The notes under the pieces were generated by a model that saw nothing but the letters and a program-made list of their open reading frames with translations, was not told the origin of the DNA and made no database searches. From positions 6,698,001-6,762,000 of the forward strand of contig CM075992.1 of the NCBI GenBank assembly GCA_038087875.1: 64,000 nucleotides of DNA, in the 5' to 3' direction. The first letter of the stretch is position 1; every line of letters starts with the position of its first letter. Shown here in pieces: positions 25,401-57,647 of the stretch. The position numbers were made by a program, and so were the translations under genes. The DNA is from Malacoraja senta (Eukaryota).

Positions 25401-25525
25401 CAGCCCCTGCTCTCACTCCATTGCATTGTCCCCACGTTCCCGTCCATCCACTCCCTACACACACACTGGGGACAATTTGCAATTATACTGAAGCGAATTA
25501 ACCTACAAACCTGTACGTCTTAGGA

Positions 25526-29143: not shown

Positions 29144-29159
29144 ATCCTACACACACTAG

Positions 29160-32095: not shown

Positions 32096-33616
32096 TAGGA
32101 TAGCGCCAGCGCATGGCGGCCTCATTGGGCTAATGGGCCTGTTTCCGTGCTGTATATCTAGTCTAAAAAGTCAGTGGCACTCTCCCGCCATCATGTGGTG
32201 ATCACAAGTAGTGTTGCAAACCTGAAAACCACCGGATGGTCCCAACCCGAAACGTCGTCTGCCAATTCTTCTCCACAGATGCTGCCTGACCTGCTGAGTT
32301 ACTCCAGCTTTATGTGTCAATCTTTGGTTTAAGTCAACATCTGCTGATCCTTCATCCTCAAAGCTTTTGTCGCCTCCAGTTTCCCCCCACCTCTATCTTT
32401 CAATCTTCCAGCACCTTGATGGGTGACTGAAGCTGAGAAGTGGAGACACAAGAAACTGCAGATGCTGTAATGTTGTTGCGAAACACAGCTGGAGTAACTC
32501 AACAGGTTAGGCAGCATCTGTGGAGGGAATGGACAGATAAAGCCTGCAGTTTCTGGAAATATGAAATAAAAAGGGAATGCTGGATGCACTCAATAGATCC
32601 GGCAGCATTCAAGGAGAAAAAAGCGAGACCCGAAACGTCACCTCTTCCTTCACTCTATAGCTGCTGCCTCACCCGCTGAGTTTCTCCAGCATTTTTGTCT
32701 ACCTTTAATGTTACAAAATGATGACTTTCATCAGAACTGGCCACTTCTGATATACATTAGAACGTTTGGTTGTGTAAAGTTGAATTCAGTGTTGAGTCCC
32801 AAGACTTGTTACATGCCGTGTTAGAATAATGAAAGACACTGAAAATGCAGATGCTAAGTGCTCCGTTCAGTAACGCCGCAAACCAGACTCGAATGAAGTA
32901 GGTGCCTCTTGCCTCTGGTGGAACTGTTGCATTGGCGTTTCCAGTGGTTCCATGGATCTGTGGCACAGTGTGGGAGAGAGAGACGGGTGAGTGGGGTTGG
33001 AGGAGGTCAGGGAGAACACTGAATGGAAGGAGATTCAGGGACGATGAGACTGAGGGTGAGTGAGAGAGTTCAAGACAAGGCTGGACAGTGAGGAGGTGGC
33101 AGTGGGCGGGGGCTTCATTGTCCGACCACCCCCCTCCCCCACTTATGTGTGGGCAAGGGAGGTGTTGACACACCTACCCACTAAACTCTGTTTATAATGC
33201 AGAAGATAGACACAAAAAAGCTGGAGTAACAGCATGTCAGGAGAAAATGAATAGGTGACGTTTAGGGTCGAGACCATTCTTCAGATATGCAGAAGAGCCT
33301 GGTCATAAGAAATAGGAGTAGAATTAGGCCATTCGGCCCATCAAGTTTACTCTGCCAGTCAATCATGGCTGATCTATCTGGCCCTCCCAACCCCATTCTC
33401 CTTCCTTCTCTCCATAACCTCTGACACCTGTACTAACCAAGAATCTATCTATCTCTGCCTTAAATATCTCCACTGACTTGGCCTCCATGGTAAATAAGTC
33501 AGTAACCGTGTTCACCATTTTCCCCACTCTAAAGGCTGCAGTAAGTAATGATTTCAATATCCCATTCCCGTGGTGCGTACCATTAAACGTTATCTGTTTA
33601 TTTATGTGTGTATATA

Positions 33617-33809
33617 CAGTGGCTTGCAAAAGTATTCATACCCCTTGAACTTTGAAAACCATGTATAATTTTCCTTCCACTTCACAATTATGCGCCACTT
33701 TGTGTTGGTCTATCACATAAAATCGCAATAAAATACATTTACGTTTGTGGTTGTAACGTGACAAAATGTGGAAAAGTTCAAGGGGTATGAATACTTTTGC
33801 AAGACACTG
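33617..33809. mobile_element. Tc1/mariner-derived MITE
   Basis: About 37-bp TIRs CAGTGGCTTGCAAAAGTATTCATACCCCTTGAACTTT (1 mismatch); TA flanks on both sides. Confidence 0.92.
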
Positions 33810-34363
33810 TATATGGTCTATGCTATATAGATACATTGAACTGTTCTGTATTTATGCTTACAATCCTCTGTTGTGCTGCAGCAAGCAAGAATTTCATTGT
33901 CCTATCTGGGACACATGACAATAAACTCTCTTGACTTGACCCACAAAACAAGATGGTAGCACAGAAGGAGGTAGCAAATCATCCTGGAACCCAAGGGCAT
34001 GTGTAAAGTAAGGAGATGGGCAACTTATTTTTTTCCAATATACTTTATTCAGAATGAAAAATATATACAAAACAAGAACAGTGCAGAAACGCTTCCGACA
34101 CTCTCGGCCTCTGTACATTAATTAGTGTCACGTGCGGTGGTGTTCACAATCAGCCCTCAAACCATGGCCCCTTGCCACTCGTGTGGCCCCCTGGCGTAAT
34201 ACCCCATCCGATGTATCTCCACCGAACTCTGCCCCTCAATCGAGCACCAGCCCCTGAGAAAGGATGCTCAACAATGAGTTTGGATGAGCTGAGTTACGTT
34301 TTATCAGAAAGTAGAAACAAGGAACTGCAGATGGTGGTTTATACCAAACATAGACACCCGGTG

Positions 34364-36133
34364 CTAAAGAATGAGAACATCTTGGATGTCCTGGTATGGA
34401 ACATCTCATCTTGGGCGCAGATGCGGCGTAGACGGAGGAATTGGGAGTAGGGGATAGAGTCTTGAGAAGAAATGGGTGACGCTGGAGAAGATGGAGAGGC
34501 AATGTTTCGTGCCAAGAACCTTCTTCGGGACCATGTTCTCCAGAAATGCTGCCTAACCTACTGAGTTACACCAGAACTTTGTCTTTTTTTTGTAAACCAG
34601 CATCTGCAGTTCCTTAGTTCTACAGGCACTTGAAGAGAGCTGGTTTCGGGAATGGAAACAAATGAGCACATTCCCAGTCATTCCCGCTGCTGTCAGGCAA
34701 CATCTCTGGGGGGGGGGGAGGCTGTGTGACATTTCGGGTCAGGGTTAAGAAGGGTCCCGATCCAAAACATCGCCCTTTTTTTCTTCAGAGATGGTGCCTG
34801 ACCCGCTGAGTTACTCCAGCACTTTGTGTATCTTACGTTTTATCAGTGCTCCCTGCGTGAGTGGATTGAGATTAAGGTCTGAGTGGAAAGCAAAGACTGA
34901 AGAAGGGTTTCGGCCCGAAACGTTACCTATTTCCTTCGCTCCATAGATGCTGCTGCACCCGCTGAGTTTCTCCAGCATTTTTGTGTACCTGGGCAGAGAA
35001 TCTCCTGATTGTAGTGGGGTCAGATTTCCTCTCTGCAGGAAGGTCATTTACAAAGCGCGGGGAGGAAATCTTCCCATTGTAATTATCCAGTCAACATTCA
35101 GTCACCTAGAACACTAGGTGTGAGAGTCTTGCATTTAGAGAATGCCTCATTATTTCTCAAGGCACTCAACAGTCAGTGTCTTACATCACAGCAGGAAGTC
35201 ACTCAGCCAGTAGAACCTGCCTCCATGAAAGGGCTCTCAATTCAATTCAAACACAGGACAAATAAGCCATTTAAAAAGAAAAAACATTTAAAACCACGCA
35301 AACTGTTCACCCGCAACGCTGATTACACTGCGAGAGGCATAACTGAAGTCGGGTAAGGGTTACTGAAATGGCGAAAGTTACGCTCCGTTGCGTACTACAC
35401 GTCAGTTCATTGGATTTTGCAGGAGTGGGCCATCTTTTTGCTCCGCACTAAGATCTTTGGGGCTGAGTAATTTACTCTGACTGCCCACAATTGTCCCTAT
35501 TAATTTGCAGAACAGTTATTGGAAACAATGCAGTCAATTAGATGGAGGTGAGGCTTAATAAATAGATTATTGGACTGCTAAAATCAATTTATTTGAATAA
35601 GTATATTTATAGACCCATGCAAACAAAAAATCTTCGTAAACAATAGAGTGGAAGGTAGTTATTTATGTGTAGGAAGAAACTGTAGATGCTGGTTTACACT
35701 GAAGGTAGACACAAAATGCTGCAGTAACTCAGCGGGACAGGCAGCATCTTTGGAGAGAAGGAAGTTATTTATCAATTGAGCACAGAATCAATCTTTGTCA
35801 CTGGCAGCAGCGGGAATGACTGGGAATGTGCTCATTTGTTTCCATTCCCGAAACCAGCTCTCTTCAAGTGCCTGTAGAACTAAGGAACTGCAGATGCTGG
35901 TTTACAAAAAAAAGACAAAGTTCTGGTGTAACTCAGTAGGTTAGGCAGCATTTCTGGAGAACATGGTCCCGAAGAAGGATCTTGGCACGAAACATTGCCT
36001 CTCCATCTTCTCCAGCGTCACCCATTTCTTCTCAAGACTCTATCCCCTACTCCCAATTCCTCCGTCTACGCCGCATCTGCGCCCAAGATGAGATGTTCCA
36101 TACCAGGACATCCAAGATGTTCTCATTCTTTAG
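34364..36133. repeat. 333-bp near-perfect inverted duplication (34364-34696 / 35801-36133)
   Basis: About 2 mismatches by manual comparison; about 1.1-kb spacer. Confidence 0.92.
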
Positions 36134-36725
36134 AGAACGGGAGTTCACCTCTCCCATCATCGATGAGGCCCTCACCCATGTCTCCTCGGTAGCCCGCGGC
36201 TCCGCCCTTGCTCCCCTGCCCCAGTCGCAACAGAGGCAGAGTCCCCCTAGTCCTTTCCTTCCACCCCATCAGCCGTCGCCTTACAACACATAATCCTCCA
36301 AAATTTCCACCACCTCCAACGGGATCCCACCACCAGCCACATTTCCCCATCTCCACCCCTTTCCGCCTTCCGCAGAGACCGTTCCCTCCGTAACTTTTTT
36401 TTCTTTTCCTTCCTCCCACAATATGTAATATGTAAAAGAATATGTGATTCTGTTCCATTCTGTTTGTTTGTTTGTTTTTCGCACAAAGTCCGCGAGCATT
36501 GCCACTTTTCATTTCACTGCACATCTCGTATGTGTATGTGACATATAAACTTGACCTCTCTGATTAACTCATCTCTTCCCACCCAAACCACCCCTCTCCA
36601 GGTATCTTCCCCTGCAACCGCATAAGATGCAACACCTGTCCCTAAACCTCCTCCCTCGACTCTGTCCAGGGACCCTGACAGTCCTATCAGGTTAGGCAGA
36701 GGTTCGCTTGCACCTCATCCAGCCT
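36036..36725 (+). mobile_element. Decayed Penelope-like fragment interrupted by a LINE 3' tail (about 36393-36557)
   Basis: DSIPYSQFLRLRRIC motif and RVPLVLSFHP motif, similar to the 40.9-kb copy. Confidence 0.8.
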
Positions 36726-37317
36726 CCTTGTCTTGGAAGCTATTCAGTTAGCCCCTCCTCCATGCGATTGTCCCATTGCCATTTTTCATTGAAAGAATTT
36801 TCCAATTTACAATTCCCATTGTGAAGGTTTGAGGTCACCCAACTCAGTACCGACTGTGATGGAAGAAAGGACATCCCAGGACTGAACTGTTGAACAATAT
36901 GTCAGCTGCTGGAGTTATTAACCCAGCTCTCGAGTTCTAAATAGTTTGCAATTCACTTTTATTCTGGCACTAGTATTGAATCAGGGTACACTGAATGGTG
37001 TCAAACTAACCATCACACTGTTTTAACAGTTCTGGTGAGTAAATAATGCACAAAGCTTCAAGCTTACTATTTGGTTTTCATTCACTTAAGGAGATTTATA
37101 TTTAAAGAGAGAATCATAGATTATTTCCATCTCCCGCAGCAGGATTGAAGCATTTATTAACTGTCGGCAGTAGTATTTGGGACAGTAGGCACCTCTGGTT
37201 TATTGCCACTTATTCCACTTTGCGTGCAAAGTTCCCCTGTAGCTGCTTGCAGACATATGACAAGATGCTGATTAGACCACAGTTCTGTGACACCATCCCT
37301 CTGGAAAGAAATACTAG

Positions 37318-37527
37318 TGTGTAGGAAGGAACTGTAGATGCTGGTTTACACAAAATATAGACAAAATGCTGGAGTAACTCAGCGGGACAGATCATCTCTG
37401 GAGAGAAGGAATGGGCGATGTTTCGGGACGTGTCTGAAGAAGGGTCTCGACCCAAAACGTCACCCATTCCTTCTCTCCAGAGATATCTGTCCCGCTGAGT
37501 TGCTCCAGCATTTTGTGTCTTTCATCA
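37318..37527 (-). mobile_element. PLE-derived fold-back mini-element
   Basis: Inverted arms; 13-bp TSD AAAGAAATACTAG at 37305-37317 and 37528-37540. Confidence 0.86.
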
Positions 37528-39739
37528 AAAGAAATACTAGCCTTGGGAAGAATACCACTTGGATTTATCCTAACTTTTGGATTCCAAGAGTTGCATTATC
37601 AAAAAAGCTTGCACAAACTAACATTCAGAAAGTTAAATGAGCCTTAATCAAAGTTTATGATAGGGTGGATGGAAATAATCACTCCTGGTTGAGGAATCTA
37701 GTGCTAAGATTTGAACCAAGGCTTTTCAACCAAAACTGAGTCCCATTCCCAATCTGATTTCCAGTTATTATACATCTTCAAGCAGTTCATCTCATGCCAA
37801 ACATAGAGAAGTAGAGCATAGGAACAGGCCCTTTGGCTCAACATATCAGCACCCGCCATGAGGTCAAATTAAACTAATGTCACCTGGAATGGTACATTGT
37901 TCCATGTCAGTACATAGGACAAGAAAACAACTCTTTTGATCTTTCAATTCCTTCTGATCATGTGAATGCTGAGGACTGCAACGTCCAGGTTCAGGAATAG
38001 CTGCTTCCCCACAGCCATCAGGCTATTAAATTCAACTGAAACAAAACTCTGAACATTAATAGACCATTATCTGTTTATTTCCACTTTATCTGCTTATTTA
38101 TTCATGTGTGTATATATCTATACAATGGTATATTGACACACTGATCCGTTCTGTATTCATGCCTACTATATTCCGTTGTGCTGAAGCAAAGCAAGAATTT
38201 CATTGTCCTCTCTGGGACACATGTCAATAAACTCTCTTGAATCTTGAAATGTTGCTAAAATATTTGTTTCCACTGGAAATGTATTCCAGCCACCTGCCAC
38301 TCTCCGTGTAAAAATCTTAACATGCCCCTGCCCATCTCATTTGAACTCGCCACCTCCCCATCTCACCTTGAACCCATGCCCTCTGCTCTCTTACGTCACC
38401 ACCCCAAGACAAAGATTCTGACCATCTCCCCTACCTAGAACCATCACTTGGTTCACACTGACAACGGGAAGAGTCTGGAAAGTACACATTAACAGACAGA
38501 GGAATCATGTACCGGATCAACCAAAATGTGCTGCAGTATGGACTGACGCTGGCAAATGCAGGGAGCACAAATTCACAGGAAACATTTAGCAAAGCATTGA
38601 CAGACTGTGTAGGAGATCATCCTTCCAGGCTTTTCAGCATGTAAAAAAAAAATGCATTGTTCATCCAAAAATATTATACTGCTGAGATCTAAACATTGCT
38701 TCACCCCCTTCTGTTGCTGCTTTGCTGGATGGTTTGCCTGTAATCTTTGTGGCAGGGTCTAATCTGTATGCAAACAGCAACGCAATGTCAATTGGGTAAT
38801 GAGACACTGGGATTCATCCTCATTATTCTCCTCGTGTGCTTGGGTGAGTAGAGCGGGAGAGACAGCAACGACCGGGAAAGCACAGCATCGATTACCCCAG
38901 TCGCCAGTTGTACTCTGCTACATCCCTGGTCATCGTATGCCCTCAGACGTCCAACACTGCATTTTCTTTTAATTAACTCTGATTGGATTTGAAGACATGT
39001 CTTGATTCGGATCCTAAACACACAGAATGCATTCCTTGGAGACCAAGGCTTCCAAATAGGATATCTCTGCTGAGCAACTTTCCCACAGTGTGATTCTTAG
39101 CAGGTTTACCTGATGAAGGCAAGGCTTCCTTGTAGTTTTGGCTGGCTTAGGTAGGGAAGTACAGGAAATAAGAATCAAACGTTTCTTCCTTAATCAATCT
39201 GCATACCTCAACAATTCAATGTGCAGGAAGGAACTGCAGATGCTGGTTTACACCGAAGACACAAAATGCTGGACTAACAGTGGGACAGGCAGCATGTCTG
39301 ACAAGAAGGAATGGGTCACGTTTCAGGTCAAGACCCTTCTTTTTCTATTTTAGCTTTGAGCAAAACACAAAGTGCTGCAAGAACAGGCAGCATCTGTGGG
39401 GGGGGGGGGGGGGAAGGATAGATGATGCCTCGGGTTACGACCCTTTCTCAGAATGGCCAGACTTTGCCCTACCCCTACTTCTCTTTTCCAGCTTTCAACC
39501 CCCTTCATCAGTCTGAAGAAACCAGACCCAAAGTGTTATCTGTCCATTCCCTCCACAGACGCTGCCCTAACCCACTGGGTTCCTCCAGCACTGTGTTTTT
39601 ACTCTATGCAAGTTTGCAGATCAGGACTTTTTTTCTTTCAGGCAAGGACAACAGCCATTTAGGCTCAACATTGAGTTCAACAATGTCACGTCATAATGAC
39701 TTGCCCCATCTCATCAGACAGCAGCTGTAGGTAACAATT

Positions 39740-39939
39740 NNNNNNNNNNNNNNNNNNNNNNNNNNNNNNNNNNNNNNNNNNNNNNNNNNNNNNNNNNNNN
39801 NNNNNNNNNNNNNNNNNNNNNNNNNNNNNNNNNNNNNNNNNNNNNNNNNNNNNNNNNNNNNNNNNNNNNNNNNNNNNNNNNNNNNNNNNNNNNNNNNNNN
39901 NNNNNNNNNNNNNNNNNNNNNNNNNNNNNNNNNNNNNNN
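39740..39939. other. Assembly gap (200 N)
   Basis: Run of N. Confidence 1.
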
Positions 39940-40890
39940 TGGTGTTGCCATCATCTTTTGTCCCACACTATCAGTCCTCAATTGCTCCCGCCTTCCACTA
40001 TCATACAACTTCCTTTTTTTCACCATGTTAGTGTTTTAAACTGCTGGCTAGCAATGAGTGATATTATTAAATACAATCACCTGTTCTACGAAAGCATTAT
40101 ACAAAAGCTCGAGAGCAAGAGAATGTCGGAGCCAATTCAATTCCAAGAAGGATTTAATGAGACTACTCCTGTAGTAGGAATTGTCAGTTTTACTAGAATA
40201 ACTAGACAATGAATTTCTTTGTGTTAATCCTTTGTTCTCTTTTACACTGTGGCATCTTACTAAAGAGCACTAGCTCACATATAACTTTTCCCAAAGTTTA
40301 TTTACTTTTGTCTTTCCTTTTCTGCAGCTCCATGATTTACACCCATTCCATTTAGATCAACCAATTCATTTAAAATTATAATGATTAAATTATAACCAGC
40401 CTAGATAAAGCTGTATCAAAACCATTTATCTCTTTGCTCTTCTGCAGTCTTCCTTTCTATTTGGCTCCTGTGCAAATTTATTTTCCTTCCTATTTCACAG
40501 CATATCATACTCTGGGGAGAATATTCTGAAGGCCGAGTCTATTACCAAAGCCACACAGGCTGACATGTCATCTCTCTGGTTGCCATTTCACTTACACCTT
40601 TTATGCCCATCCCATCATATTATTTTATTATCGTTGTTCAAGGAAGTAGCAATCAACCTCCAACCAGAAAGGGCTAAATCTAATGCGATATTAACAATGC
40701 ACATTTATATTAAACAGTCTTAAATATATGAAATCTATGTCTCCGTAGATTGAGTGGTAAATTATGAAATGTCAATCTTTGAACACAAGAGAGCAGGAGT
40801 AGGCCACTCGGCCCCTCAAGCCTGCCTCACTATTCATGTATCCTGGCCTCAAAGTCAAGTCAAGTATATGCACAAGTACATATACACGAT

Positions 40891-41710
40891 ACCCCGTGAC
40901 ACTGCTCTCTCCCCATCCCCCCCCACTCGTAACAAGGGCCGAGTCCCCCTTGTCCTCACCTTCCACCCTACCAGCCGTCACGAACAACTAATAATCCTCC
41001 GTCATTTTCGCCACCTCCAACGTGACCCCACCACTTGCCACATCTTCCCATCTCCTCCCCTGTCCGCTTTCCGCAGAGACCGTTCCCTCCGTAACTCCCT
41101 GGTCAATTCGTCCCTTCCCACCCATACCACCCCCTCTCCGGGCACTTTCCCTGGCAACCGCAGGAAATGCTACACTTGTCACTTCACCTCCCCCCTTGAC
41201 TCCATTCAAGGACCCAAGCAGTCGTTCCAGGTGCGACAGAGGTTCACCTGCACCTCCTCCAACATCATCTATTGCATCCGCTGCTCTAGATGTCAGCTGC
41301 TCTACATCGGTGAGACCAAGCGTAGGCTTGGCGATCGCTTCGCCGAACACCTCCGCTTGGTTCGCAATAACCAACCTGATCTCCCTGTGGCTCAGCACTT
41401 CAACTCCCCCTCCCATTCCCAATCCGACCTTTCTGTCCTGGGCCTCCTCCACGGCCAGAGTGAGGACCACCGGAAATTGGAGGAGCAGCACCTCATATTT
41501 CGCTTGGGCAGTTTGTACACCAGCGGTATGAACATTGACTTCTCTAATTTCAGGTAGTCCCAACTGCCTCCTCCTTCTCAGCTCTCCCCCACCACCACCC
41601 ACCCTCACATCAGTCTGAAGAAGGGTTTCGGCCCGAAACTTTGCCTATTTCCTTTGCTCCATAGATGCTGCTGCACCCGCTGAGTTTCTCCAGCATTTTT
41701 GTCTACCTTA
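40891..41710 (+). mobile_element. 5'-truncated Penelope-like element (Neptune-type GIY-YIG endonuclease region plus terminal repeat)
   Basis: Open frame to TAG 41557: CYTC...FTCTSSNIIYCIRCSRCQLLYIGETKRRLGDRFAEH...VAQHF...RKLEEQHLIFRL...GMN; followed by CTGAAGA...GAAAC hammerhead-like motif and repeat arm. Confidence 0.92.
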
Positions 41711-43904
41711 CATATACAAGTTTCTATGTTTCTATTTGATTGGGGACGATGGCGCCATGATCACAATGAATGGCGGCGCTGGTTCGAAGGGCCTCCTCCT
41801 GCACCTATTTTCTATGTTTCCACAGACACAGTCAAAGATACTTTAGCTATAGTATCTTTGGGCACAGTGAAAATCTTACTTGCAGTAGCATTACAGGCAC
41901 AGAGACTCAGATAACACACTAAATATATTATACAAGAGAGTAAAAAGAAATCTGTGCAAAAACAAGATATAAGTGCAAAAACACAATTAGAAAACAAGTG
42001 CATGGTAGTGCAAGAGGTGGCCTGTAGCGTTCCGTTGCCAAGATAGGTTCAGGGCTGTGGGGGTCCGTTTAAGAACCTGTTCGGTAAAGTAGATCTTCCT
42101 GGACCCGGTGCTGTAGGACTTCAGGCTTCTCGATTCCTTTTCTGTACACTCACACAAAATTTTCTATAGATCCATTTCCCAGATTTGCACATTAATTGTC
42201 CATTAAACTTACCACAGAAATTTAATTCAGGTAATTAGCAAGTAGTCTTTTTAATGATGTGATAATTGTTACTGCACACTGTTAGCCAACACTTCTTAAA
42301 CCAAGGAAAAGCTGTTTAATAAATGGTAGTGAATTGTTCATCAAGATTCAAGTATTTTAAAATCTATTACCCCATTCAATATTTGATTGTCTATTTCACA
42401 TTTTGTATCCAGTTTGACTCTATTCATTATTTCCTGCTCAGTCAATCCTTTCTCAGTCTACAATTTTATCTTAGCCGATGTACTATTGGTCCTACATAGA
42501 CTTTGGTCACACCCTACATTCTGGATGATTAACAGCTCAGTGCAGAACAATAACAAACAGACTGGAGATAGACACAATGCGCTGGAGTAACTCAGTGGGT
42601 CAGGCAGCATCTCTGGAGAAAAAGGACGGGTGACGTTTCCGGTCCTGAGTATTTCCAGCATTTTGTGCCTATCTTTGGTATAAACCAGCATCTGCAGTTC
42701 CTAGTTTCTACAAACAGACTGGTCCAGTCTGAAGAAGCCTCTAGACCTGAAACGTCACCCATTCCTTTTCTGAAGAAGGGTTTCGGCCCCAAACGTTGCC
42801 TATTTCCTTCGCTCCATAGATGCTGCCGCACCCGCTGAGTTTCTCCAGCAATTTTGTCTACCTTCGATTCTCCAGCATCTGCAGTTCCTTCTTGAACATT
42901 GACCCATTCCTTTTCTCCAGGGATGCTTGCCTGTCCCGCTGAGTTACTCCAGCTTTTTGTGTCTATCTTTGGTGCAGGAAGATATTCCTCCACCACCAGC
43001 TTCATCTGCCCATCAATAACACATCCACACATTGACACCCCCAACACTCCCTTACTGCTCCCATCTGCCTACCAACCTTTCCATCACTATCACCATTCTT
43101 TCTGATCGGATTCCAGAACCAGCTATCCGTTGTTATGTCCACTAATAACCTCGCAGTCTCTGTCACTATTCCCTCATCCCTTCCCCCACCAGGTTCCTTA
43201 CGTCTGGATCCATGTATCACTTCCTAGCTCTTGCTCCACCCTTCTACCCTCTACTCTCTCAGTTCAAATGAAGGGTCTCAACCCAAAATGTTCTGCCCAT
43301 TTCCCTCCACAGATGCTGCCTTACCCCCTGCCCTTTGAGACAATGTAGATGCTGAGAACGTTTCTACCCTGGCTGGGCAGTCATATTCTCAATCGTTTAG
43401 GATGGAGACACTATTCACGAGTTCCCCATATCTACAAAATAATCTTCCGCAGAAGATGTAGAGAGATGTTGATGTTAACAGAGAAACTCATGCATGGTCA
43501 TTTGACCACATGGTCAGGTACGAACCTTATTCCATCAATAATCTCAGTTCAACAGTGGGGTGGCGCAGTGGCACAGCAGGAGAGTTGCTGCCTTACTGCT
43601 CAAGACCCAGGTTCGATCACAACTTTAGATGGTGTCCTTGCAGAGTTTGTACATTCTTCCTGTGACCGCATGTTTTTTTTTCCTGGTGCTCTAGTTTCCT
43701 CCCACATTCCAAAGACGTATGGGTTTGTAGGTTAATTGACATCTGTAAATTGTCCCTAGTGTGTAGGATGCGAGGGTGAGTAACATAGAACTAGTGCGAA
43801 CAGGAGATCAATGGTCAGCATTGACTCAGTGGGCCGAAGGGCCTGCATTCACTGTGTCTCTAAACTAAACTAAAAAAAGTGCTGGAAGGCAGGCCTTGTT
43901 AAGT

Positions 43905-44115
43905 GTGTAAGAAGGAACGGCAGATGCTGGTTCAAACTGAAGATAGACACAAAAAGCTGGAGTAACTCAGCGGGACAGGCAGCATCTCTGGGGAGAAGGA
44001 ATGGGTGACGTTTCGGGTCGAGACCCTTCTTCAGACGCTCGACCCGGAACATCACCCATTCCTTCTCCCCAGAGATGCTGCCTGTCCGGCTGAGTTACTC
44101 CAGCTTTTTGTGTCT
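43905..44115 (-). mobile_element. PLE-derived fold-back mini-element, representative of a family with dozens of copies or arms in the window
   Basis: Inverted arms; 14-bp TSD AGGCCTTGTTAAGT at 43891-43904 and 44116-44129; intact hammerhead-like core on - at 44005-44036. Confidence 0.88.
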
Positions 44116-45039
44116 AGGCCTTGTTAAGTATTGGGTGTCAACTTACAAAGTTGCAACACAGGACTGCATGGTTGTCACACGACAATAAACTGCGTGCAAT
44201 AGACCAACCGATCAGATGAAGGATCTGTAGCACTCCTAGATCTAGGGCGGAGGACAATCGGCCAATGGATCAGGTGGCTCCAAGAAAACCCTAAATGAAA
44301 GCAACACCCAAGATAAAAATGTTCACGACAAGGCTGAGGCATTTATTACCATATTCAGCCAGAGGTATCCAGTGGGATGATCCATTTAGTTTATTGTCAC
44401 GTGTACCAAGGTACAGTAAAAGCTTTTGTTGCGTGCTAACCAGTCAGTGGAAAGACAATACGTGATTACAATCGAGCCGTCCACAGTTTACAGATACAGG
44501 ATAAAGGGCACAATGTTTAGTGCAAGATAAAGTCCAGTAAAGTCCGATTAAAGATAGTCAGAGGGTCTCCAATGAGGTAGATAGTAGCTCGGGACCACTT
44601 TCAGTTGCTGGTACACAATTCCAACCAGAAGAATACAGGAGGCTACACAGAATGGTGGACTCAGCACAGACCATCACGGGTACAGCCTTCTCCACCATCG
44701 AAATCTTCCACATGAGCTGCTATCTCAGGAAAGTGGCATCTAACATTAAGGATCTCCACCATCCATGCCATGCCCTCTTCTCATTGCTAATATCCGGGTG
44801 AGTACAGGAGCCTGATGGAGAAGGATTATCCTTCTCTATCTTTCAGTCTGAGGAAGGGTTCCGACCCAAAACGTCACCATTCTTTTTCTGCAGAGATCGC
44901 TGCCTGACTCACGGAGTTACTTCAGCATTTCGTGTCTATCTATAGTATAAACCAGCATCTGCAGTTCCTTCCTGCACAGGAGCCTGATGTTCCACACCAA
45001 CAGGTTCAGGAGAGCCTAGGTGACTGTATTACATTTGAA

Positions 45040-45232
45040 GGTAGACAAAAATGCTGGAGAAACTCAGTTGGTGAGGCAGCATCCATGGAGCGAAGGAATA
45101 GGTGATGTTTCGGGTCGAGACCCTTCTAAACGTCGCCTAATTCCTTCGCTCCATAGATGCTGCCTCACCCGTTGAGTTTCTCCAGCATTTTTGTCTACCT
45201 TTGATTTTCCAGCATCTGCAGTTCCTTCTTAA
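45040..45232 (+). mobile_element. PLE-derived fold-back mini-element
   Basis: Inverted arms; 14-bp TSD GTATTACATTTGAA at 45026-45039 and 45233-45246. Confidence 0.88.
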
Positions 45233-46446
45233 GTATTACATTTGAACATCTCTTATAATTGATAGACTCTAAGAAAAGTTTTGACCCAATGCTTTCATTC
45301 CATCCCTCCATATCCAGCCATACCGCATTAGTCCATAACTCCTTATACTCAAAAACAGAAGTATTTATTCAATGCCTGTGACATTCTTTTGTCATCATTT
45401 AAATTCCTGCCTAAGGGCAAAGAGTAGAATTTCTGAAATGTCTAGAAAATAACGTTTTTGTTCATGGAGCACTGTCCAACAAGAAGAAAATATTCTGTGT
45501 CCTCTCCTGGGGATTGAAGCGAGGCAGTGAAATTTGGGAAACAGCAATCGTAATATCATCAGATTTGGAATAACAATAAACGAGGACAAGGAATGCTCAA
45601 GCGAGTTGCAAGGGATCCTGTATAACTGGATTTGGAGTCAAAGTATGTGGGCAGGTGTGGTCACCCAACCAAAGGAAGCAGCAGTAAGATTGCAGCAAAG
45701 GTAAAGAGAATAAACAAAGGTGGACAAAAATGCTGGAGAAACTCAGCGGGTGAGGCAGCATCTATGGAGCGAAGGAACAGGTGACATTTCGGGTGGAGAC
45801 CCTCTTCTGACGTAAACAAAGAAAGGATCACTAAATTGGGACTGCAGGTTTGTGGTATGGGACTAGGTCTATACTCATCAATGCAGGAGAGAGAAAGGTG
45901 ATAACACTAAAACATATACAATTCTTAAGTGGCTGTGGAACTAAGAATCAGTCTTCAAATAAGAAGTTGGACATTTAGAGTCACTCCTTTCTTGGGATCT
46001 TTCTCATCATCCCTCCATTCCCAGTCTCCCTCCCCCCACCCCCTCCCCCCACCCTTACCCGACTATAAACCATCTTACCCTCCCCCATTCTCATCTCAAT
46101 GCCAACCTTGCCACTACTCTCTCCCCCCCTGCCACCTTCCCCTTTACCCCCAATCCTCCTCTCCCACTTCCCTATTGCACAACCCCTGTACACTCTTCCA
46201 CCCCCTTTTTCCTCCAGTCCTCAACCAGTACTTCCCTCCAATGCCCCCTCTCCCACTTCACTCCCCCCCCCCAAACTCCCTTCACTTCCACAGTGGCATG
46301 CAGAGTTTGCACGTTCTCCCTGTGACTGCATGGGGTTTCTCCGAGTCCTTCGGTTTCCTCCCACATCCCATAGCCGTGGTGTGTTCATTAATTGGCTTCT
46401 GTAAATTGCGTGGGATAGAACTATTGTACAGGTGATTGATGCTCAG

Positions 46447-47172
46447 GTAAACACAAAATGCTGGAGTAACTCAGCGGGTGAGGCAGCATCTCTGGTGAGA
46501 AGGAATGGGTGACTTTTCGGGTCGAGACCCTTCTTCAGACTGATGTCAGGGGAGGGGGTGGGACAGAGATAGAATGTAGTCAGAGACAGTAAGACTGGTG
46601 GGAGAACTGGGAAGGGGAGGGGGGTGGAGAGCAAGGGCTATTTAAAGTTAGAGAAGTCAATGTTCATACCGCTGGGGTGTAAGCGACTCAAGCGAATTAT
46701 GAGGTGCTGTTCCTCCAATTCACTGTGGGCCTCACTCTGACAATGGAGGAGGCCCAGAACAGAAAGGTCAGATTGGGAATGGGAGTTAAAGTGCTGAGCA
46801 ACCAGGAGATCAGGTAGGTTAAGGCGGACTGAGCGGAGGTGTTCAGCGAAACGATCGCAGAGCCTGCGCTTGGTCTCGCTGATGTACAGGAGTTGACACC
46901 TGGAACAGCGGATACGGTAGATGAGGTCGGAGGAGGTGCAAGTGAACCTCTGCCTCATCTGAAAAGACCGTCGGGGTCCTTGGATGGGGTCGAGGGGTGA
47001 GGTAGTGAGAGCCTCATCTATAATGGAAGAGGGGAACGCCCGTTTCCTAAAGAATTAGAACATTTCTGATGCCCTGGTATGGTAAACTTCATCCTGGGCG
47101 CACATGTGGTGTAGACGGAGGAATTGGGAGTAGGGGATAGAGTCTTAACAGGAAGCAGGATGGGAAGAAGTG
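46447..47172 (-). mobile_element. Truncated, internally deleted Penelope-like element
   Basis: ORF 46638-46958 GIY-YIG (LIYRIRCSRCQLLYISETKRRL); RT-thumb fragment near 47040-47150; terminal repeat with hammerhead-like motif at 46511-46540. Confidence 0.9.
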
Positions 47173-47239
47173 CTCAGCATGGATTCTGTACACAAAGGGC
47201 CTGTTTCCACACAATCTTTAAACTAAAAAACACTCACTA

Positions 47240-48440
47240 ACCCACCTTTCTCCTCCACTCATTCACCCAGTCTTTCCCATCACTCTCTCTCGCAACCTCC
47301 TCACTTCACTCCCTACCCCTCCTCCTCCCCCACTCACTCTCTACCTCCCACTCTCCCCTCATCCACCTCCTTCTCCCTCCCTCACTCCTCTTACTCAAGC
47401 ACACCCCATATATTCTCTACCCTTCTACTCACTCCCCCTATTCTCACACCGTTCTTCCCTCACTCACACTTTCCCCCTCCCTTCAATTCTCAGCCCGCAC
47501 ACCCCTTCCCCCACTCTTCCTCCCCAGCCCATGCTCATGTTACTGCCCCACTCTCAGCCCAGCCCTACTTTCCTCCCTCACGCTCCTTACACTACTCCTC
47601 CGTCAGCCCCTCCCTCCCTCCCTTCACATTCCCTCTCCCCCTCCCATCACACTCTCCATCCACCCTCCATCACCTCACTCCCCCTTCCTCTCCCCTACCC
47701 CCTCGCTCAATTCTCCTCATCCCCATCCCACCACCACCCTCTCCCTACTCACTCCCTTTCCCCTCACTTTCCCCTTCTCTTACAATTCCTCTTTGTCACT
47801 CCCCACCTCCACCACCACCCGCACGCTCCCCCTCCCTCACCCACACTCCCCCTCCTCACACAGCCCTCATTCCCTCCTCTCCCCGCCTCATTGTCTTCCC
47901 CCTCCCCTCACACTCCTCGCTCCGCCCACATTCACTCTCCTCTCATTGTCTTGGGGATTGGGGATGATCAGCCATGGTCACATTGAATGGCGGTGCTGGC
48001 TCAAAGGGCCAAATGGCCTCCTCCTGCACCTATTGTCTATTGTCTTCCCTATCTTTGGTCTTCCCTCTCTCCCCTCACCATCCATTCTCCTCTCACCATC
48101 TCCCCTCCCCTCATTCTCCCCTCCCTCACCTCATTCTTCCCTCTCCCTGCCTTCATTCTCCCCTCCCCCTCCCCTCCCCATTCACCCCTCCCTCTCCTTC
48201 TCCCCTCCCTCCCCCCTCCCCCTCCTCATCCTCCCCCTCCTCATCCTCCCCCTCACAGCCCAAATTCTCCCCTCCCCATCTCATCCCTCCCAAGCTGCCC
48301 TCGTTCTCCCGTCGCCCACTATCTCCTCATTCTCCCCTTCCCCTTCCTCTACCCACTCTCTCTACCCTCCATCCTCTCTCTCCCTCCCTCCCTCCCTCCC
48401 CCCCCATCTCCCCCTCCTCACCCTCTCCACTCCCCGCCCC
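47240..48440 (+). repeat. Polypyrimidine low-complexity tract (similar tracts at 13400-13790, 46000-46290, 53195-53600)
   Basis: Strong C/T bias over more than 1 kb, with a short CR1 tail at about 47950-48040. Confidence 0.9.
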
Positions 48441-48900
48441 TCCCCCCACTCCCGCAGTCCCGGGGCCGCGCATGCGCCCGCTCTCTTTCTCTCTTCCCCC
48501 CCCCCCCCCCCTCCTCACTTACCGGCGGCTCTTTGTTCCGTTGGTCCCGCGCGCGGCGCCTCCTCCTCAGGTAACGCGCGCCGCTGCCGCCCGCCCCGCG
48601 CTTCCCGCCCTCCTGGCCGCCCGCCCGCGCGGAGCCACCAACTGCCGCCCGTCGCCGGGGTGGCTCCGCGCTCCGGCCGCGGGTTCGCGTCCCGATCCCT
48701 GATCCACCCGAACGAGCGAGCGACCGACCGAGCGCCTCATTGTCCGAAGCGGAGAGCGCCCGGCAGGCCCCGCCGCCCCATATGGTGGCGCATCCGGACT
48801 AAAATTAATTAGTTTTATATATTGCGATTAATTCAAAATATATTGTTTAGCCGGGTGTGGATGGCGAGCGGGGCTGCGGGCTGCTGATCGCTTGTCTTGT
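48430..48900. promoter_or_regulatory. CpG-island promoter with probable non-coding first exon(s); gene unidentified (SMARCA4 expected by synteny)
   Basis: CpG-dense; GC box 48432-48440; NRF1 palindrome GCGCATGCGC 48468-48477; + donor CAG|GTAACG at 48570/48571; - donor CCG|GTAAGT at 48523/48522. Confidence 0.75.
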
Positions 48901-49916
48901 TCTTTGGCTGGCTCTGCCTGCCTGCTCGCCACTGAACAAAGCATTGCACACTGCTCTCTGCACAGACAGCTGCTCTTTGCAATTTAAAAGGCTGAAAAAA
49001 AGTTTTTTTAATATTGTGTTTTTGGCAAAACCTTTAAATATCTCTTGAACACAATTCTGCAAATTTTCGCTGCAGGAGATTGATTTTTTAATCGTGTAAT
49101 TTTATAGATATCTAAAAATCATGTGCGTGATATACAGTTTTCTTCTGTGTTTTCTCTTCTCCCGATGTAAAATACAAATAGTTGTTTAGAAGTTTTGTTA
49201 TGATGCAATTTTGCACGATACTCCGCTCCTCAGATATGACAAATTGTTAAATATGTTACTGATATTCCTCTGACTTCAGAGGTCAGGGTTGTTCTGTTTA
49301 TCAATCGTGGGATTTAGTGATGTTGGGGCTTGCTGTATTTTAAGGATGTGGGAGTTTTGGAAAGGTTTTCAATTAAATTGTATCCCTGCTTGAAACATTT
49401 GTGTTTCTGCTCCCCTCCCCAAGAAAAAAAATCTTATCCTGCTGCTCAGATAAATACATTTGGTAGTTTTGACCTTGTGAAATGTTTAAAGTTCCTAAAG
49501 AAATTGTTTCAGGACCGATCCCGTTCAGCTAAGGTATCCGTTTCCCACCAGGAGAGGTGTTTAATTCTCCTGCTCACCAAATGGTCTGATGGAAAGAGCT
49601 GTGAAAGCAGATCTTTCTTTGTAAAGCTTTGTTGGGTGGTACTGAAGGAAAGGTCTGATGCTTTGGTGGATGCAGTGGTTCCAGTTGTGATCTGTTACCA
49701 ATATAGTCCGAGTCATACAGCATGGAAAAAGGCCCTTCACCCCAACTTGCCCATGCTGACCAAGATGCGCCATCTGCGCTAGTCCCAACTGCTCGGGTTT
49801 GGCCCATATCCCTCTAAACCTTAGATAGACACAAATTGTGGGAGTAACTCGGCGGGACAGGCAGCATCTCTGGAGAGAAGGATTGGGTGATGTTTCGGTT
49901 GGAGACCCTTTGTCTG

Positions 49917-50059
49917 GACCAAAAATGTCGCCCATTCCTTCTCTCCAGAGATGCTGCCTGTCTCTACCAAAAATGTCGGGCATTCCTTCTCTCCAGAGAT
50001 GCTGCCTGTCTCGACCAAAAATGTCGCCCATTCCTTCTCTCCAGAGGTGCTGCCTGTCC
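49917..50059 (+). repeat. Three tandem 48-bp units inside a fold-back element arm
   Basis: Unit ACCAAAAATGTCGCCCATTCCTTCTCTCCAGAGATGCTGCCTGTC repeated three times. Confidence 0.9.
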
Positions 50060-52181
50060 CGCAGAGTTACTCCAGCATTTTGTGTTTATATTCGGTTAAA
50101 CCAGCATCTGCAGTTCCTTTACACTAAAAGGAATAGGTGACTTTTCCCCACACGTGCCTGTCCAAATGGCTTTTTGAGAGAGTCTAGGACAGGGGGCACA
50201 GCCTCAGAATAAAAGGACATACCTTTAGAATGGAGATGAGGAGAAATGTCTTTAGCCAGAAGGTGGAGAATCTGTGGAATTCATTGCAACAGGCGGCTGT
50301 GGAGGATAGGTCATTGGGTATTTTTAAAGACGAGATTGATAGGTTCTTGATTAGTAAGGGCACCAAAGGTTACAGGGAGAAGGCAGGAGAATGGGGTTGA
50401 AGGAAAAATAGATGAGCCATGATATGGCGAAGCAGATTTGATGGGCCAAATGGCCTAATTCTGCTCCTATGTCTTGTGGCCTTTTAAATGTTATAGTACT
50501 TCCCTCAACCACATCCTCTGGCAACTCGTTCCATATACTCACCACAGTGAAACAGTTGCCCCTCAGGTTCTTATTAAATCTTTCCCATCTCATCATAAAC
50601 CTGTGCCCTCATGTTCTTAATTTCCTTACCCTTTGTAGTCATTACCTACTATGTTCTGCTGCGCTGAAGCAAAGCAAGAATTTCATTGTCCTATCAGGGA
50701 CATATGACAATAAACTCTCTTGAATCTTACCCTGGTGGAAATTCTCTGTGTATTCACCCTATCTATTCCCCTCATGATTTTATACACCTCTATATGGGTT
50801 TCCCATGGAGATGATGAGAAATTAGGGAATATTTATTTTAAAAATTATTTATTTCAGTTTTTTCCTCAGAAGGTGTGTACTTTTGTAGATGGGCATCGAG
50901 ATTCTTTCTGTGAGAGATGATACTTGACGGGCTGTTTGACTGGGGCAGGAATCACCACTGAGCCAACACTGTCAGTCACTAGCTGAAGTTGGGACGTGCT
51001 CAGCATATCAAGCAGCATCTGTGGAGAGAGGAAAAACACAGTTAACATTGCACATCAAAGGCAGTTCATCAGAACACGCAGAGTCTGGGGGTTTAGCACC
51101 GTAAGCACATTCATAGCCAGGGATAGAACAAAATGGGAACCAACAGCGACTTCCTTGCGATGGAACATCTCGGTCCTTTGCTGATCCTCACTAACCACGA
51201 CCTCCCTAGTCAGTAGTGCCTCGTGCACTGTTTGCCTATGCAAGTCCTCAGTAAATGTCAGTTCTTTTTAAACTTACGATGAAAAGGACGCAGCCTCCAG
51301 CGATACTGCTAGCTCTGCTCTGGGAAGTTGGTATTGGACGTGATTTTAAATCATCCAGTCGGCATTTAAAAAAGTGTAGGAAGGAACTGCAGATGCTGGT
51401 TTACACCAAAGATAGACAGTTACACAGTGGGTCAGGAAGCGTCTCTCGAGAAAAGGAATAGGTGGCGTTTTGGGTCGAGACCCTTCTTCGGACTTCTCAG
51501 TCTGAAGAAGGCTCTCAACCCAAATCGCCACCTATTCCTTTTCTCCAGAGATGTTGCCTGAGTTACTGCAGCACTTTATGTCTATCTTCAGTATTTTTAA
51601 AATCCAGTGTGTTTCAGAGTTGAGATCACGGGCGGCTAATGTGATATTCAGTTGTTCCCTAAGTCAATTCCGTAAAAAGATTACTTCTGTAGCTAATGGT
51701 TAAAAAGCCGAGGAAGTTGCTGCCAGCTTGCCTTCTTTCAAAGTAGGCTTGGTTTACACTAAGGGGAACAATGCAGCTCAGAGGTCACATGGGTCAATAC
51801 CAGAGCAGGCTGTCTCTCGGATCAGCCAGCCCTCTTAGCGTGAGTTTTATCTTGTTGGCAGATGGACCATTAATTGGGGGAGACTCGAAGGGAGGATAGT
51901 CTTTTGAATTATTCAGCTTGCTAATTCTCAGCGGGACTCGAGTAGATGCGTGCTCCTCCCCTTCCATCTCCCACCGCGTCCTCACTGTAGTTATCAGCCT
52001 ATTCCATTAAGGGTGTCAAGGGTTGAGAGGAGAAGGCAGGGGAACGGGGTTGAGGGGATGATGGATCAGCCATGATGGAATGGCGGGGTAGACTCGATGG
52101 GCCAAATGGCTCCCACTTCGGCTCCTATGACTTATGAACATGAGATCTGACTCGGGCAGAGACACGACATGCTCGGATACA

Positions 52182-52333
52182 ATGTGTAGGAAAGAACTAC
52201 AGATGCTGGTTTAAATCAAAGGTAGACACAAATCGAAGGTAGACAGTCTGAAGAAGGATCTCGACCCGAAACGTCACCCATTTCCTCTCCAGAGATGCTG
52301 CCTGACCCACTGAGTTACTCCAGCATTTTGTGT
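52182..52333 (-). mobile_element. PLE-derived fold-back mini-element
   Basis: 14-bp TSD CATGCTCGGATACA at 52168-52181 and 52334-52347; CTGAAGA...GAAACGTC core at 52248-52275 on +. Confidence 0.85.
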
Positions 52334-53895
52334 CATGCTCGGATACAGCTGTGCTCCCTGCCCACGGCAGACAGAATGATTTTTGCTTTGCCTCTACCTG
52401 CTAGGCAACGTAACTCCCCCACTTGGCCATCACCCTGGGAGTGGAAGTTGGAAGGACACCATGTGCTGTTACCTCTTCTCCCCCCCCCCCCCCCCCCGGG
52501 GGAAGGGAAAGGGGCAACATCTGCAGAGTGAGACAGTGCCATGACTCCGGGCAATCCCATGCTGGCTGCACAGCAATGTAGCACGTGGCTGTTCTGTAGG
52601 ATTTTACATATGAAATCCTCAGTTTAATTACCTCAGTTCACTTTAGTTCATTGTCATGTGTACAGTGAAAAGCTTTTGTTACGTGCTATCCAGTCAGCGG
52701 AAAGACAACTGTGTAGGAAACTTGTTGTGAGTTTATTTTTTTTTCTGTTTCCATTGGTACATAGAACATTATCTGAAATGCCAGGCAGCACATTGAGATC
52801 TGACTTAGTAAACCAAATAACTCTTAGGGTGGCACAGTGGTAGAGTTACTGCCTCCCAGCGCCAGAGACCCAGGTTCAACCCTGACCTCGGTTGCTGTCT
52901 GTGTGGAGCTTGCACATTCTCCCTATGGGTTTTCTCCTGGCGTTCCGGTTTCCACCCACATCCCAAAGTGGTGCAGCTTTGTAGGTTAATTGCCTTCTGT
53001 AAAATTGTCCCGAGTGTGTAGGATAAAACTGTGATCACGGGTCGGCATGGACTTGGTGGGCTGAAGGGCCTGTTTCAATCTGTATCTCTAAAATAAGCGA
53101 AACAAATCGCCTTTTCCATTCCCTTCGTTCCTACAAAATCCTCCAGTCTGTCAACCAGTTTCCTTGCTCCTCACTTCCAGTGTTACCTTCTTCCAAGACT
53201 CTCCCTCTCTCTCCCCCTCTCTCTCCCTCTCTCTCCCCCCTTCCTCTCCCCCCCTCCCCCTCTCCCTCTCCCTCCCTCTCTCTCCCCCTCTCCCTCCCCC
53301 TCCCTCTCCCCCTCTCTGTGACTCTCTCTGTCTGTCTCTCTCTTGCTCTCTCTGTCTCTGTCTCTCTCTATATCTCTCTCTCTGTGTCTCTCTTTGTCTC
53401 TCACCCCCTCTGTCTCTCTCTCTCGCTCTGTCTCTCTCCCTCTGTCTCTCTCCCCTCTCTCTGTGTCCCTCTCTCTGTATCTCTCCGTGTGTATCTCTCC
53501 CTGTCTCCGTCTCTCCCTGCTTGTCTCTTTATTTGCGTGTTTCTTTCTGTCTGTGTGTCTCTCTTTCCCTGCCTGTGTCTCTCCCCCTCTCTCTCGTTCT
53601 CCGTGATTGTGATGAAGAGTTACTGGATCATTGTTTCCAAGCTCACGCTGATTGAACCTGTTTCAGTTTGATGCATGGATAATTAGCCATCCTGTGGCGG
53701 TAGGAATAATAAATTAAGTTTTGAGCCCTGTTTTTGGGTGATGGAAAGGACTTGTGTTCCCCACGTACATCACAGCAGCTGCACCTTCCACAGTAACGTC
53801 TGCTAATCATTCAAAATCATCTTTAATACTTACAAAAGACAATGCCAATGAAGTAATAATTCATAAAGGTGAAAGAACACAGTATAGAGAAAGGG

Positions 53896-54133
53896 TCGAA
53901 GATGGACACAAAATGCTGGAGTAACTCAGTGGAACAGGCAGCATCTCTGTTGAGAAGGAATGGGTGACGTTTCGGGTCGAAACTCTTCAGACTGAAGTTC
54001 AGTCTAAAAAAGGGTCTCGACCTGAAATGTCACCCATTCCTTCTCTCCAGAGATGCTGCCTGTTCCACTGAGTTACTCCAGCATTTTGTGTCTATCTTCA
54101 GTTTAAACCAGCATCTGCAGTTCCTTCCTGCAC
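53896..54133 (+). mobile_element. PLE-derived fold-back mini-element
   Basis: Long near-perfect inverted arms; 12-bp TSD ATAGAGAAAGGG at 53884-53895 and 54134-54145. Confidence 0.88.
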
Positions 54134-55029
54134 ATAGAGAAAGGGACAGTGGGAAGATGACTGCTCTGGGCAAGGTCTCACTTGCTCAGTGGATGCAGTT
54201 GGCTCAACGGTTGGGTACGCTGTATCCCGAGAGACTGCTGTGTGCCACGTAAACATAGAATATAGATCAAAGAGCTGTACAGCACAGGGACAGGCCCTTT
54301 GGCCCACAATGTCTGTGCCAAACACAATGCCAACATAAACAGATCTTTGCCTGTACATGATCCACATCCCTCCATTCCCTGCATATCCATGTGCTGTCCC
54401 AAAACCTCTTAAATGCCACTATCTGCCTCCACTACCACCCCAGGTAGTGTGTTCCAGGCACCCACCACTCTGTACAAAATAAATTCCCCATGCATCACTT
54501 AAGAGACATAGCGCTGAAACATGCTCTTTGGCCCACCAAGTCCGTGCCGACCAGTACCTTGTGCACTAACACTATCTTACATACAAGGGACAATTTACAT
54601 TTTTTTAACCAAAGCCAATTAACCTACGCACCTGTACATCTTCGGTGTGTGGGAGGAAACCAGAGCTCCCAGAGAAAACCCACACGGTCACAGACTAGTA
54701 TACAAACTCCGTACAGACAGCACTCGTGATCAGGGTCGAACCCGAGTCTTTGGAACCGTATGGCAACAGCTCTACTGCTGCACCACTATGCTGCCCCCAT
54801 CTCCTTTCAACTTTGTCCCTCACACCTTAAACCTCCAAGTGTATGCCTCCCTTTTTCTTAAGTGTGTGGCATTAATAAAAAGATGAAATCTCGCTCTATT
54901 TCTAATAAGATGGAAGCGTTCATAAATCAAAGCCTTTAGGTTGATTGTAAGCTGGAGAGCTGCTTGGTATCCTTGCTGAATCAGAATTCTTCCGAGAGCA
55001 AGAATGTTTCAGCTCCGCGGAATGGTTGG

Positions 55030-57483: not shown

Positions 57484-57647
57484 AATGTAGATGCAAGGAA
57501 CTGCAGATGCTGGATCACAATGAAAGATCCAAAATGCTGGAGTAACTCAGACTCTGAAGAAGGGTCCCCCAACCCGAAACATCACCCATCCATGTTCTTC
57601 AGAGATGCTGCCTGACCCGTTGAGTTACTCCAGCATTTTGTGTCTTT
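57484..57647 (-). mobile_element. PLE-derived fold-back mini-element
   Basis: 12-bp TSD ATAAGAACAAGG at 57472-57483 and 57648-57659. Confidence 0.82.

Follow-up and report, generated by a model that had tools for sequence, protein, structure and literature searches.

Short inserted copies of a Penelope-like element terminal repeat, likely of the Neptune clade and with a hammerhead motif likely inactive in nearly all of them, in a 64-kb stretch of the Malacoraja senta genome

Cervera and De la Pena (2014) have described minimal hammerheads in the pseudo-long terminal repeats (pLTRs) of Penelope-like elements (PLEs), where the motif lies sense to the open reading frame (ORF) and soon past its stop, occurs mostly as dispersed singles with some close opposite-strand pairs, and cleaves weakly as dimers (PMC4209133). 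The layout recurs in a 64,000-nt stretch of Malacoraja senta DNA (assembly GCA_038087875.1, contig CM075992.1, positions 6,698,001 to 6,762,000), which we analysed in full and call the window. Both systems share CUGANGA, one extra base, a G-C first stem II pair, GAAA, a palindromic ACGU, and C or U at H17. They differ in stem I, which has 2 weak pairs in the window and 3-6 in most published entries, in the 4-bp stem II with tetraloop of the window copies, and in local density, which would lie far above the 4,000 (coelacanth) and 9,000 (Xenopus) motifs per genome reported there if the window is typical. The window is animal DNA rich in decayed transposons, and we conclude with high confidence that its many hairpins and solo arms are short insertions derived from the terminal repeat of an abundant PLE, likely Neptune, whose hammerhead is likely inactive in nearly all copies.

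Three further systems bear on this locus. In complex PLE insertions, an inverted, 5′-truncated pLTR is accompanied by a short target duplication and by a tail of 30-40 bp that is present on one side only (Arkhipova et al. 2013, PMC3846280; Craig et al. 2021, PMC8557442). The window shares their head-to-head arms, ~30-nt tail on one arm, target duplications and strong 5′ truncation, but nearly always holds the terminal repeat alone, and its duplications are 12-14 bp rather than the 8-10 bp of rotifers. The anole Poseidon element PAc has been studied in vitro (Frangieh et al. 2024, PMC11167929): its protein nicks both strands, and reverse transcription starts at two internal RNA sites, between which lies the tail; uncut RNA serves as the main template, hammerhead mutants insert normally, and the ribozyme fails without the element protein. 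PAc resembles the window family in its pLTR hammerhead, a tail ~70-110 nt downstream and copies from uncut RNA, and differs in belonging to the Penelope/Poseidon clade and in lacking the Cys linker; the PAc ORF begins at stem II. Non-LTR retrozymes (bioRxiv 10.64898/2026.07.22.740005) are likewise non-coding, pLTR-derived and equipped with a type I hammerhead, but they form head-to-tail arrays with a complete motif per unit, whereas the window copies are solo or head to head; the same preprint reports that 8 of 9 Xenopus dimers did not cleave, and gives Neptune and Poseidon as the PLE groups among its sampled vertebrates. The element class, the hammerhead and the inverted-plus-tail insertions are thus all already published, and the window is a dense new example. 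The part of the published motif alignment consulted (PMC4209133, supplementary file 2) has no chondrichthyan row, and a term search of the literature, including two elasmobranch genome preprints, returned no description of the family in sharks or rays; Repbase and Dfam, outside that search, may hold it, as may the tables of the retrozyme preprint.

Three ORF remnants tie the repeated arm to a PLE:

40889..41557, plus strand: PLE copy A, a 5′-truncated ORF remnant with the end of the reverse transcriptase (RT) thumb, a degenerate CX4CX2C linker, a GIY-YIG endonuclease with CCHH residues, and a stop (Pfam, protein matches, alignment)
41558..41614, plus strand: copy A spacer, pyrimidine-rich, ending in TCAGT (sequence)
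41615..41642, plus strand: copy A minimal hammerhead core, TTCG-loop variant, G16.2 changed to T (sequence, covariance model)
41643..41708, plus strand: copy A arm, without tail (arm profile)
46445..46542, minus strand: copy B core (46538-46511, CTCG-loop variant, C15.2 changed to A) and arm, no tail (sequence, profile, covariance model)
46638..47174, minus strand: PLE copy B, an ORF remnant with stops, in which a deletion fuses RT thumb to endonuclease and removes the Cys linker (tblastn)
35882..36729, plus strand: PLE copy C, with an inverted tail-bearing arm (35882-35965), a damaged core (35969-36016) and an ORF remnant (~36030-36729) (similarity, profile)
1587..63716, both strands: the whole arm family (profile search)

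In these remnants the endonuclease lies C-terminal to a PLE-type RT thumb within one ORF. The ORF of copy A (40892-41557) is 56-69% identical to seven cartilaginous-fish RT-endonuclease proteins, six of which cover 96-100% of the query; the best matches are from whale shark, devil ray, stingray, zebra shark and bamboo shark, and the close homologs carry RVT_1 plus GIY-YIG. Its own Pfam GIY-YIG match is weak (E 4.5e-4, score 20.9, below the curated cut-off of 22.6), as is that of copy B, and the CCHH endonuclease residues C131, C134, H153 and H169 are invariant in alignment A1. Copies A and B are 80% identical in protein over 123 aa (tblastn). The CX4CX2C linker is intact in copy C (at 36613; the 3′ end of this copy is lost), has its first Cys changed in copy A and is deleted in copy B. 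A CX2-5CX2C linker between RT and endonuclease marks Neptune and Nematis (PMC8557442). The Neptune-type label of the initial annotation therefore stands as far as the C-terminal GIY-YIG and a Cys linker of Neptune/Nematis type go, and these leave the two clades unseparated; judged from motifs and relatives rather than a tree, the element likely belongs to the Neptune clade. The Acropora digitifera Neptune element (PMC4209133, table) shares the C-terminal GIY-YIG and CX4CX2C linker, and its motif row is matched by six related loci with 37-45% identical protein (L014, L016, L028, L031, L050 and L058), while its arm and spacer sequences are unrelated to those of the window.

Both remnants that keep a 3′ end are followed by a core and then an arm. 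The spacing, first put at about 60-100 nt, measures 57 nt for copy A (ORF end 41557, core 41615) and 99 nt for copy B (ORF end 46638, core 46538). Copy C has the inverted, tail-bearing arm and core 5′ of its ORF sequence. For copy A, a 10-bp candidate target duplication lies at 40877-40886 and 41709-41718. The reading of the arm as a pLTR copy is borne out: ORF remnants end in the same arm, and the insertion pattern is of PLE type.

A profile trained on 19 window copies finds 77 arm matches in 46 clusters, which cover 6779 bp or 10.6% of the window bases; the reversed window, used as a control, gives none. ORF sequence is present in 3 of the 46 clusters, and nearly all insertions are the terminal repeat alone. 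Neighbouring arms form 22 head-to-head, 8 tandem and 1 tail-to-tail pairs, and so the "dozens of fold-back repeats" first described hold for arm copies (77) but not for fold-backs, which number only about 20 (two of the 22 pairs are one duplicated event). In three public runs from related organisms, more than 115,000 contigs per run were placed on 551 bases of copy A, which shows that the arm family is abundant in relatives and is not a measure of copy number.

The make-up of the fold-backs is illustrated by two of them:

43904..44116, both strands: fold-back of a tail-bearing arm (43904-44036, minus) and an arm that begins in loop II (44038-44115, plus), with a 14-bp target duplication at 43891 and 44116 (profile, repeat search)
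45032..45231, both strands: fold-back with a tail on the plus arm only and a 14-nt flanking repeat at 45026 and 45233 (profile, flank comparison)

The tail, ~30 nt long, is on exactly one arm in 19 of the 22 head-to-head pairs, on both arms in none and on neither in 3 (permutation p = 0.0006). It switches between left and right arm across pairs and sits on the more 5′-truncated arm in 14 of the 19 tailed pairs; the longer arm begins within the first 20 profile positions in 21 of 22. Copy 3′ ends fall into two classes, at profile positions ~95-110 and 122-136. Direct repeats of 12-14 bp, a few of which may contain terminal element letters, flank 7 of 12 clean pairs, while 62 mismatched controls reach at most 10 bp. 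Apart from the single duplicated event, all 22 pairs differ in their junctions. Given the one-sided tails, target duplications and differing junctions, each hairpin is therefore a separate insertion that arose in situ.

Very high density, uniform size and target duplications around the entire hairpin would also be expected if the hairpins were a non-autonomous family of their own, MITE-like (miniature inverted-repeat transposable element) or retrozyme-like, descended from one or a few master hairpins; pLTR-derived retrozymes have been reported in vertebrates, one chondrichthyan included (bioRxiv 10.64898/2026.07.22.740005). We regard this origin as highly improbable: Every independent pair has its own junction, the one-sided tail lies on the left or right arm by turns, ORF-bearing copies end in the same arm, and the window is free of tandem arrays of complete units. 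Retrozymes are recognised by head-to-tail units with a complete hammerhead in at least two consecutive ones, and none of the 8 tandem junctions in the window has this arrangement. The MITE reading proper was rejected because hairpin junctions differ.

The initial annotation had placed a minimal type I hammerhead motif on the strand of the ORF in the arms, and the core layout agrees with this, as do sense motifs in relatives. Of 79 related loci, 50 combine a match as far as the ORF end with 250 nt or more of flank (the other 29 were left out for a short match or flank; some rows are near-duplicates). A sense minimal hammerhead lies within 400 nt of the ORF end in 24 of these 50, with none antisense and none in shuffles, and 23 of the 24 sit 81-153 nt past the estimated ORF end. 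An alignment of 18 of the 23 extracted motifs (L013, L018, L028, L068 and L076 were left out, two with a 1-bp stem I) is 97.6% paired, with 35 two-sided changes that fall on 6 of 7 pairs, and 0 of 500 shuffles reach its covariation score. A covariance model built from the relatives alone gives 31 window matches at E up to 1, of which 29 lie at arm 5′ ends on the arm's strand. Stem II pairing, unlike stem I pairing, formed part of the search pattern for the relatives. Judged by this comparison of sequences, the window motif is a hammerhead by descent.

Second copies of the terminal repeat are seen in some related loci, inverted in L013 (424-519) and L068 (2329-2379), and direct in L025 (259-357), ~3.1 kb upstream, where there looks to be a near full-length element between two pLTRs. 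The end of zebra shark protein P0004, LMKGLRPKRQ, fits a related core read in frame; this is at the protein level only and was not counted.

In the window, the core pattern at up to 2 mismatches occurs 17 times against 0.05 expected by chance. C3, G5, A6, G8, A9, A13 and A14 are kept in 92-100% of covering copies, loop II and H17 are variable, and the palindromic ACGT of stem III is, as annotated, the family state. An intact core (full core, 4-bp stem II, ACGU-H) is present in only 2 of the 77 arm copies, at 44034-44007 (minus) and 34897-34924 (plus); these are the two that the initial annotation had singled out (44005-44036 and 34897-34924), and there are no others:

44005..44036, minus strand: the sole copy with intact core, stem II, ACGU-C and 2-bp stem I (covariance model 29.7 bits, core check)
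34897..34995, plus strand: solo arm with intact core, without the stem I 5′ strand (core pattern, core check)

The second begins at the core and therefore lacks stem I. CpG decay has broken most cores: 36 of 56 copies retain G12 and 39 of 58 retain G16.2, and both letters, like C15.2, lie in CpGs and decay at a rate like that of other CpG columns. Each ORF-linked copy carries one change of the ACGT palindrome (G16.2 to T in copy A, C15.2 to A in copy B), an early caveat that is confirmed, and these changes are private. At position 41640, contigs from four public runs of related organisms read the family letter G in 84, 88, 83 and 92% of their summed depth (40 of 109 differences were displayed; depth was not used as copy number, nor the low cover of the spacer taken as absence).

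Stem II has 4 bp with the G10.1-C11.1 pair present. Its two variants had been called compensatory, which is wrong because they differ on one side only (GGGT..GCCC and GGGT..ACCC, U-G for U-A), and the 8 window cores contain 0 two-sided changes. Stem I is 2 bp (U-A or U-G plus G-C), as had been cautioned, and its third pair is broken in 7 of 8 window cores; a longer stem I, sought by eye and by pair counts, was seen only in copy 29995, which has 4 bp and a broken stem II. Excess conservation of the core, a check named at the outset, came out only faintly: Core columns without CpG reach 94%, against 90% for the median arm column, and with its edge bias this weak excess was used neither way because dead copies are not expected to show it. 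Two intact cores do not occur together at any of the 8 tandem junctions. An Rfam scan (E up to 10) returned no hammerhead family and only sub-threshold matches to plant microRNA hairpins; the Rfam models apparently miss the minimal form, so this blank says little. Viral contigs searched with the exact core pattern gave 0 matches. Hammerhead activity is probably absent from nearly all genomic copies.

Predicted folds suggest that any cleavage by the window copies would be weak. In four of them the predicted stem II probability is 0.002-0.012 and the hammerhead fold lies 4-8 kcal/mol above the best fold; in 21 relatives the median probability is 0.67, with 9 of 21 under 0.3. For both window variants, folding predicts a competing hairpin, in which the core and GGGU pair with bases after the cut site, and a transcript through one hairpin has a predicted fold of ~-167 kcal/mol with the core buried. 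The claim of a very high number of hammerheads accordingly divides: motif-bearing arms have been spread as PLE copies, while a large number of working ribozymes is made less likely by 2 intact copies of 77, 2-bp stems I, the low stem II probabilities and the long duplexes.

That very many hammerheads do work, as dispersed or tandem copies that cut host or element transcripts and form dimers via the ACGU palindrome, we judge unlikely. The retention of the catalytic letters beside a variable loop II and H17 and the palindrome as family state would fit, as would head-to-tail units of 97 nt in 5, 9 and 3 contigs of the three public runs (joints counted irrespective of core state) and the weak cleavage of minimal PLE hammerheads as dimers or with protein (PMC4209133; PMC11167929). 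Against it are the single copy of 77 that has both an intact core and stem I, a stem I of 2 bp where 20 of 24 relatives have 3-6 bp, the predicted folds, the tandem pairs without two intact cores, the ordinary CpG decay of core letters and the Xenopus dimers that stay uncleaved.

A tentative but quite possible alternative concerns the motif alone and is compatible with the PLE origin of the arms: that it is an inherited relic, which in this lineage has ceased to cleave in the parent element as well and which would be retained, if at all, for a role in a promoter or protein-binding site. Reduction of stem I to 2 weak pairs, the predicted competing hairpin, window cores without two-sided change and core columns barely more conserved than the median arm column all point this way, and insertion is unaffected in anole hammerhead mutants. 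The opposite is suggested by the catalytic letters, G10.1-C11.1, the extra A after A9 and the palindrome, which are all kept in both subfamilies; stems I of 2 bp, two G-C pairs each, are moreover listed for Drosophila, Culex and Oikopleura elements (PMC4209133), the anole ribozyme likewise fails without protein, and monomer fold prediction often misses hammerheads, as in the relatives that score under 0.3.

For the insertions themselves, we favour copying of the PLE terminal repeat by the element's own machinery, along the lines of the anole element. The element protein would nick both target strands, and reverse transcription would start at two internal RNA sites, one at the arm end (~70 nt past the predicted cut) and one at the tail end (~100 nt past). 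Joining the two short complementary DNAs (cDNAs) head to head would give one hairpin per insertion. The template was likely uncleaved, because copies run through the cut site: 56 of 77 begin upstream of GAAA and 2 begin at the cut site itself. As for the parent element, its hammerhead would be weak, with dimer or protein help needed via the ACGU palindrome, and insertion would not depend on it.

Most cDNAs would end at the 5′ edge of the core, the likely RNA start. Among the 28 copies that reach the core start, 3 run on into the spacer (the two ORF-linked copies and 39509) and 7 stop 4-5 nt upstream at (T)CAGT, and this pile-up of 5′ ends at the core perhaps marks the start of the RNA. TCAGT is similar to the initiator consensus. 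Drosophila Penelope has an internal promoter (PMC2377424). Most simply, run-off copying to the RNA 5′ end would account for the majority of insertions; stalling at the structured core or an unrecognisably variable spacer are alternatives. More speculatively, and on balance doubtful, the hammerhead would be a locked switch at the RNA start: Transcription would begin at TCAGT, the conserved alternative hairpin would block the ribozyme, and most insertions would be run-off copies of a 100-135-nt RNA start made from two internal priming sites.

Several observations weigh against the account of short PLE insertions given here. Three of the 22 pairs have no tail at the chosen cut-off, and the tail arm is the longer one in 3 pairs. 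The arms of one pair are a median of 82% identical, compared with 75% for any two copies, a value below that expected of young single events, for which age and poor junction alignment may account. Among the related loci, 26 of 50 are without the motif, and only the stem I covariation of the relatives is unbiased, because the stem II pairs belonged to the search pattern. The two-site priming model comes from a Poseidon rather than a Neptune element, and the Neptune assignment itself shares its marks with Nematis. The spacer is low-complexity and differs between subfamilies, and could mask upstream extension of solo copies. The window lacks a full-length element, an RT core and a 5′ pLTR, so that the parent element is inferred.

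The remaining arm copies between copies A and B are:

42559..42976, both strands: cluster of five arm pieces, one head-to-head pair plus tandem copies, with cores 42729 and 42770 each broken (arm profile)
43265..43330, plus strand: degenerate solo arm (arm profile)
44844..44978, plus strand: solo arm with tail, beginning at TCAGT, G12 lost (arm profile)
45715..45811, minus strand: solo arm without tail, damaged core (arm profile)

Elsewhere, an inverted duplication of 333 bp, 99.4% identical (34364-34696 and 35801-36133), encloses 1.1 kb of other sequence and contains host flank, a tail-bearing arm and part of copy C; it accounts for the one head-to-head pair that is counted twice, and is a recent local inversion or an assembly artefact. 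The plus arm of fold-back 49815-50119 has three head-to-tail 48-nt units that run from loop II into the arm, and back-jumps of 33-38 nt in a comparable part of the motif are seen in public contigs. Fold-back 60406-60716 is split in two by ~145 bp of short inverted and tandem repeats that were inserted later.

The window also holds other features. An intact-looking ORF at 27887-28420 (plus; Pfam Tim29, E 1e-46) is likely the main exon of host TIMM29, of which a GC-rich island at ~24950-25480 may be the first exon and promoter. There is a Tc1/mariner-like transposase remnant at 30712-31585 (minus; Pfam DDE_3), and a 200-bp element with 42-bp terminal inverted repeats at 33612-33814. ORF remnants at 3082-3585 (minus), 23005-23406 (minus), 58813-59295 (plus) and 61846-62283 (minus) resemble, by eye, C-terminal parts of L2/CR1-type long interspersed nuclear elements; two were checked and had no Pfam match. 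At 55173-55601, a palindromic short-tandem-repeat block with 89-nt arms bears no relation to the PLE arm. Another kind of inverted pair, with a different repeat end, at 840-1074 and 63278-63452, probably represents facing ends of another retroposon family. A long pyrimidine-rich low-complexity run begins the stretch 47222-48830 and is followed there by a GC-rich island (~48400-48830) that is a possible gene start.

The value of this family lies in scale and regularity: about one tenth of the window consists of these ends, and each hairpin has readable priming sites, a junction and a target duplication, which makes such genomes a large natural data set for the unsettled mechanism of PLE integration. 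Two intact cores per 64 kb would extrapolate to ~30,000 per gigabase, more than the coelacanth and Xenopus counts, but a figure that from one window is no estimate. If the locked switch were true, tens of thousands of PLE integration junctions would be on record in the genome, whose hammerhead-motif load would possibly be the highest known in any vertebrate. With its short stem I and predicted competing hairpin, the family is well suited to asking whether cleavage by PLE hammerheads is required at all, and the hairpins would yield long double-stranded RNA in host transcripts as well as false calls of microRNA precursors.

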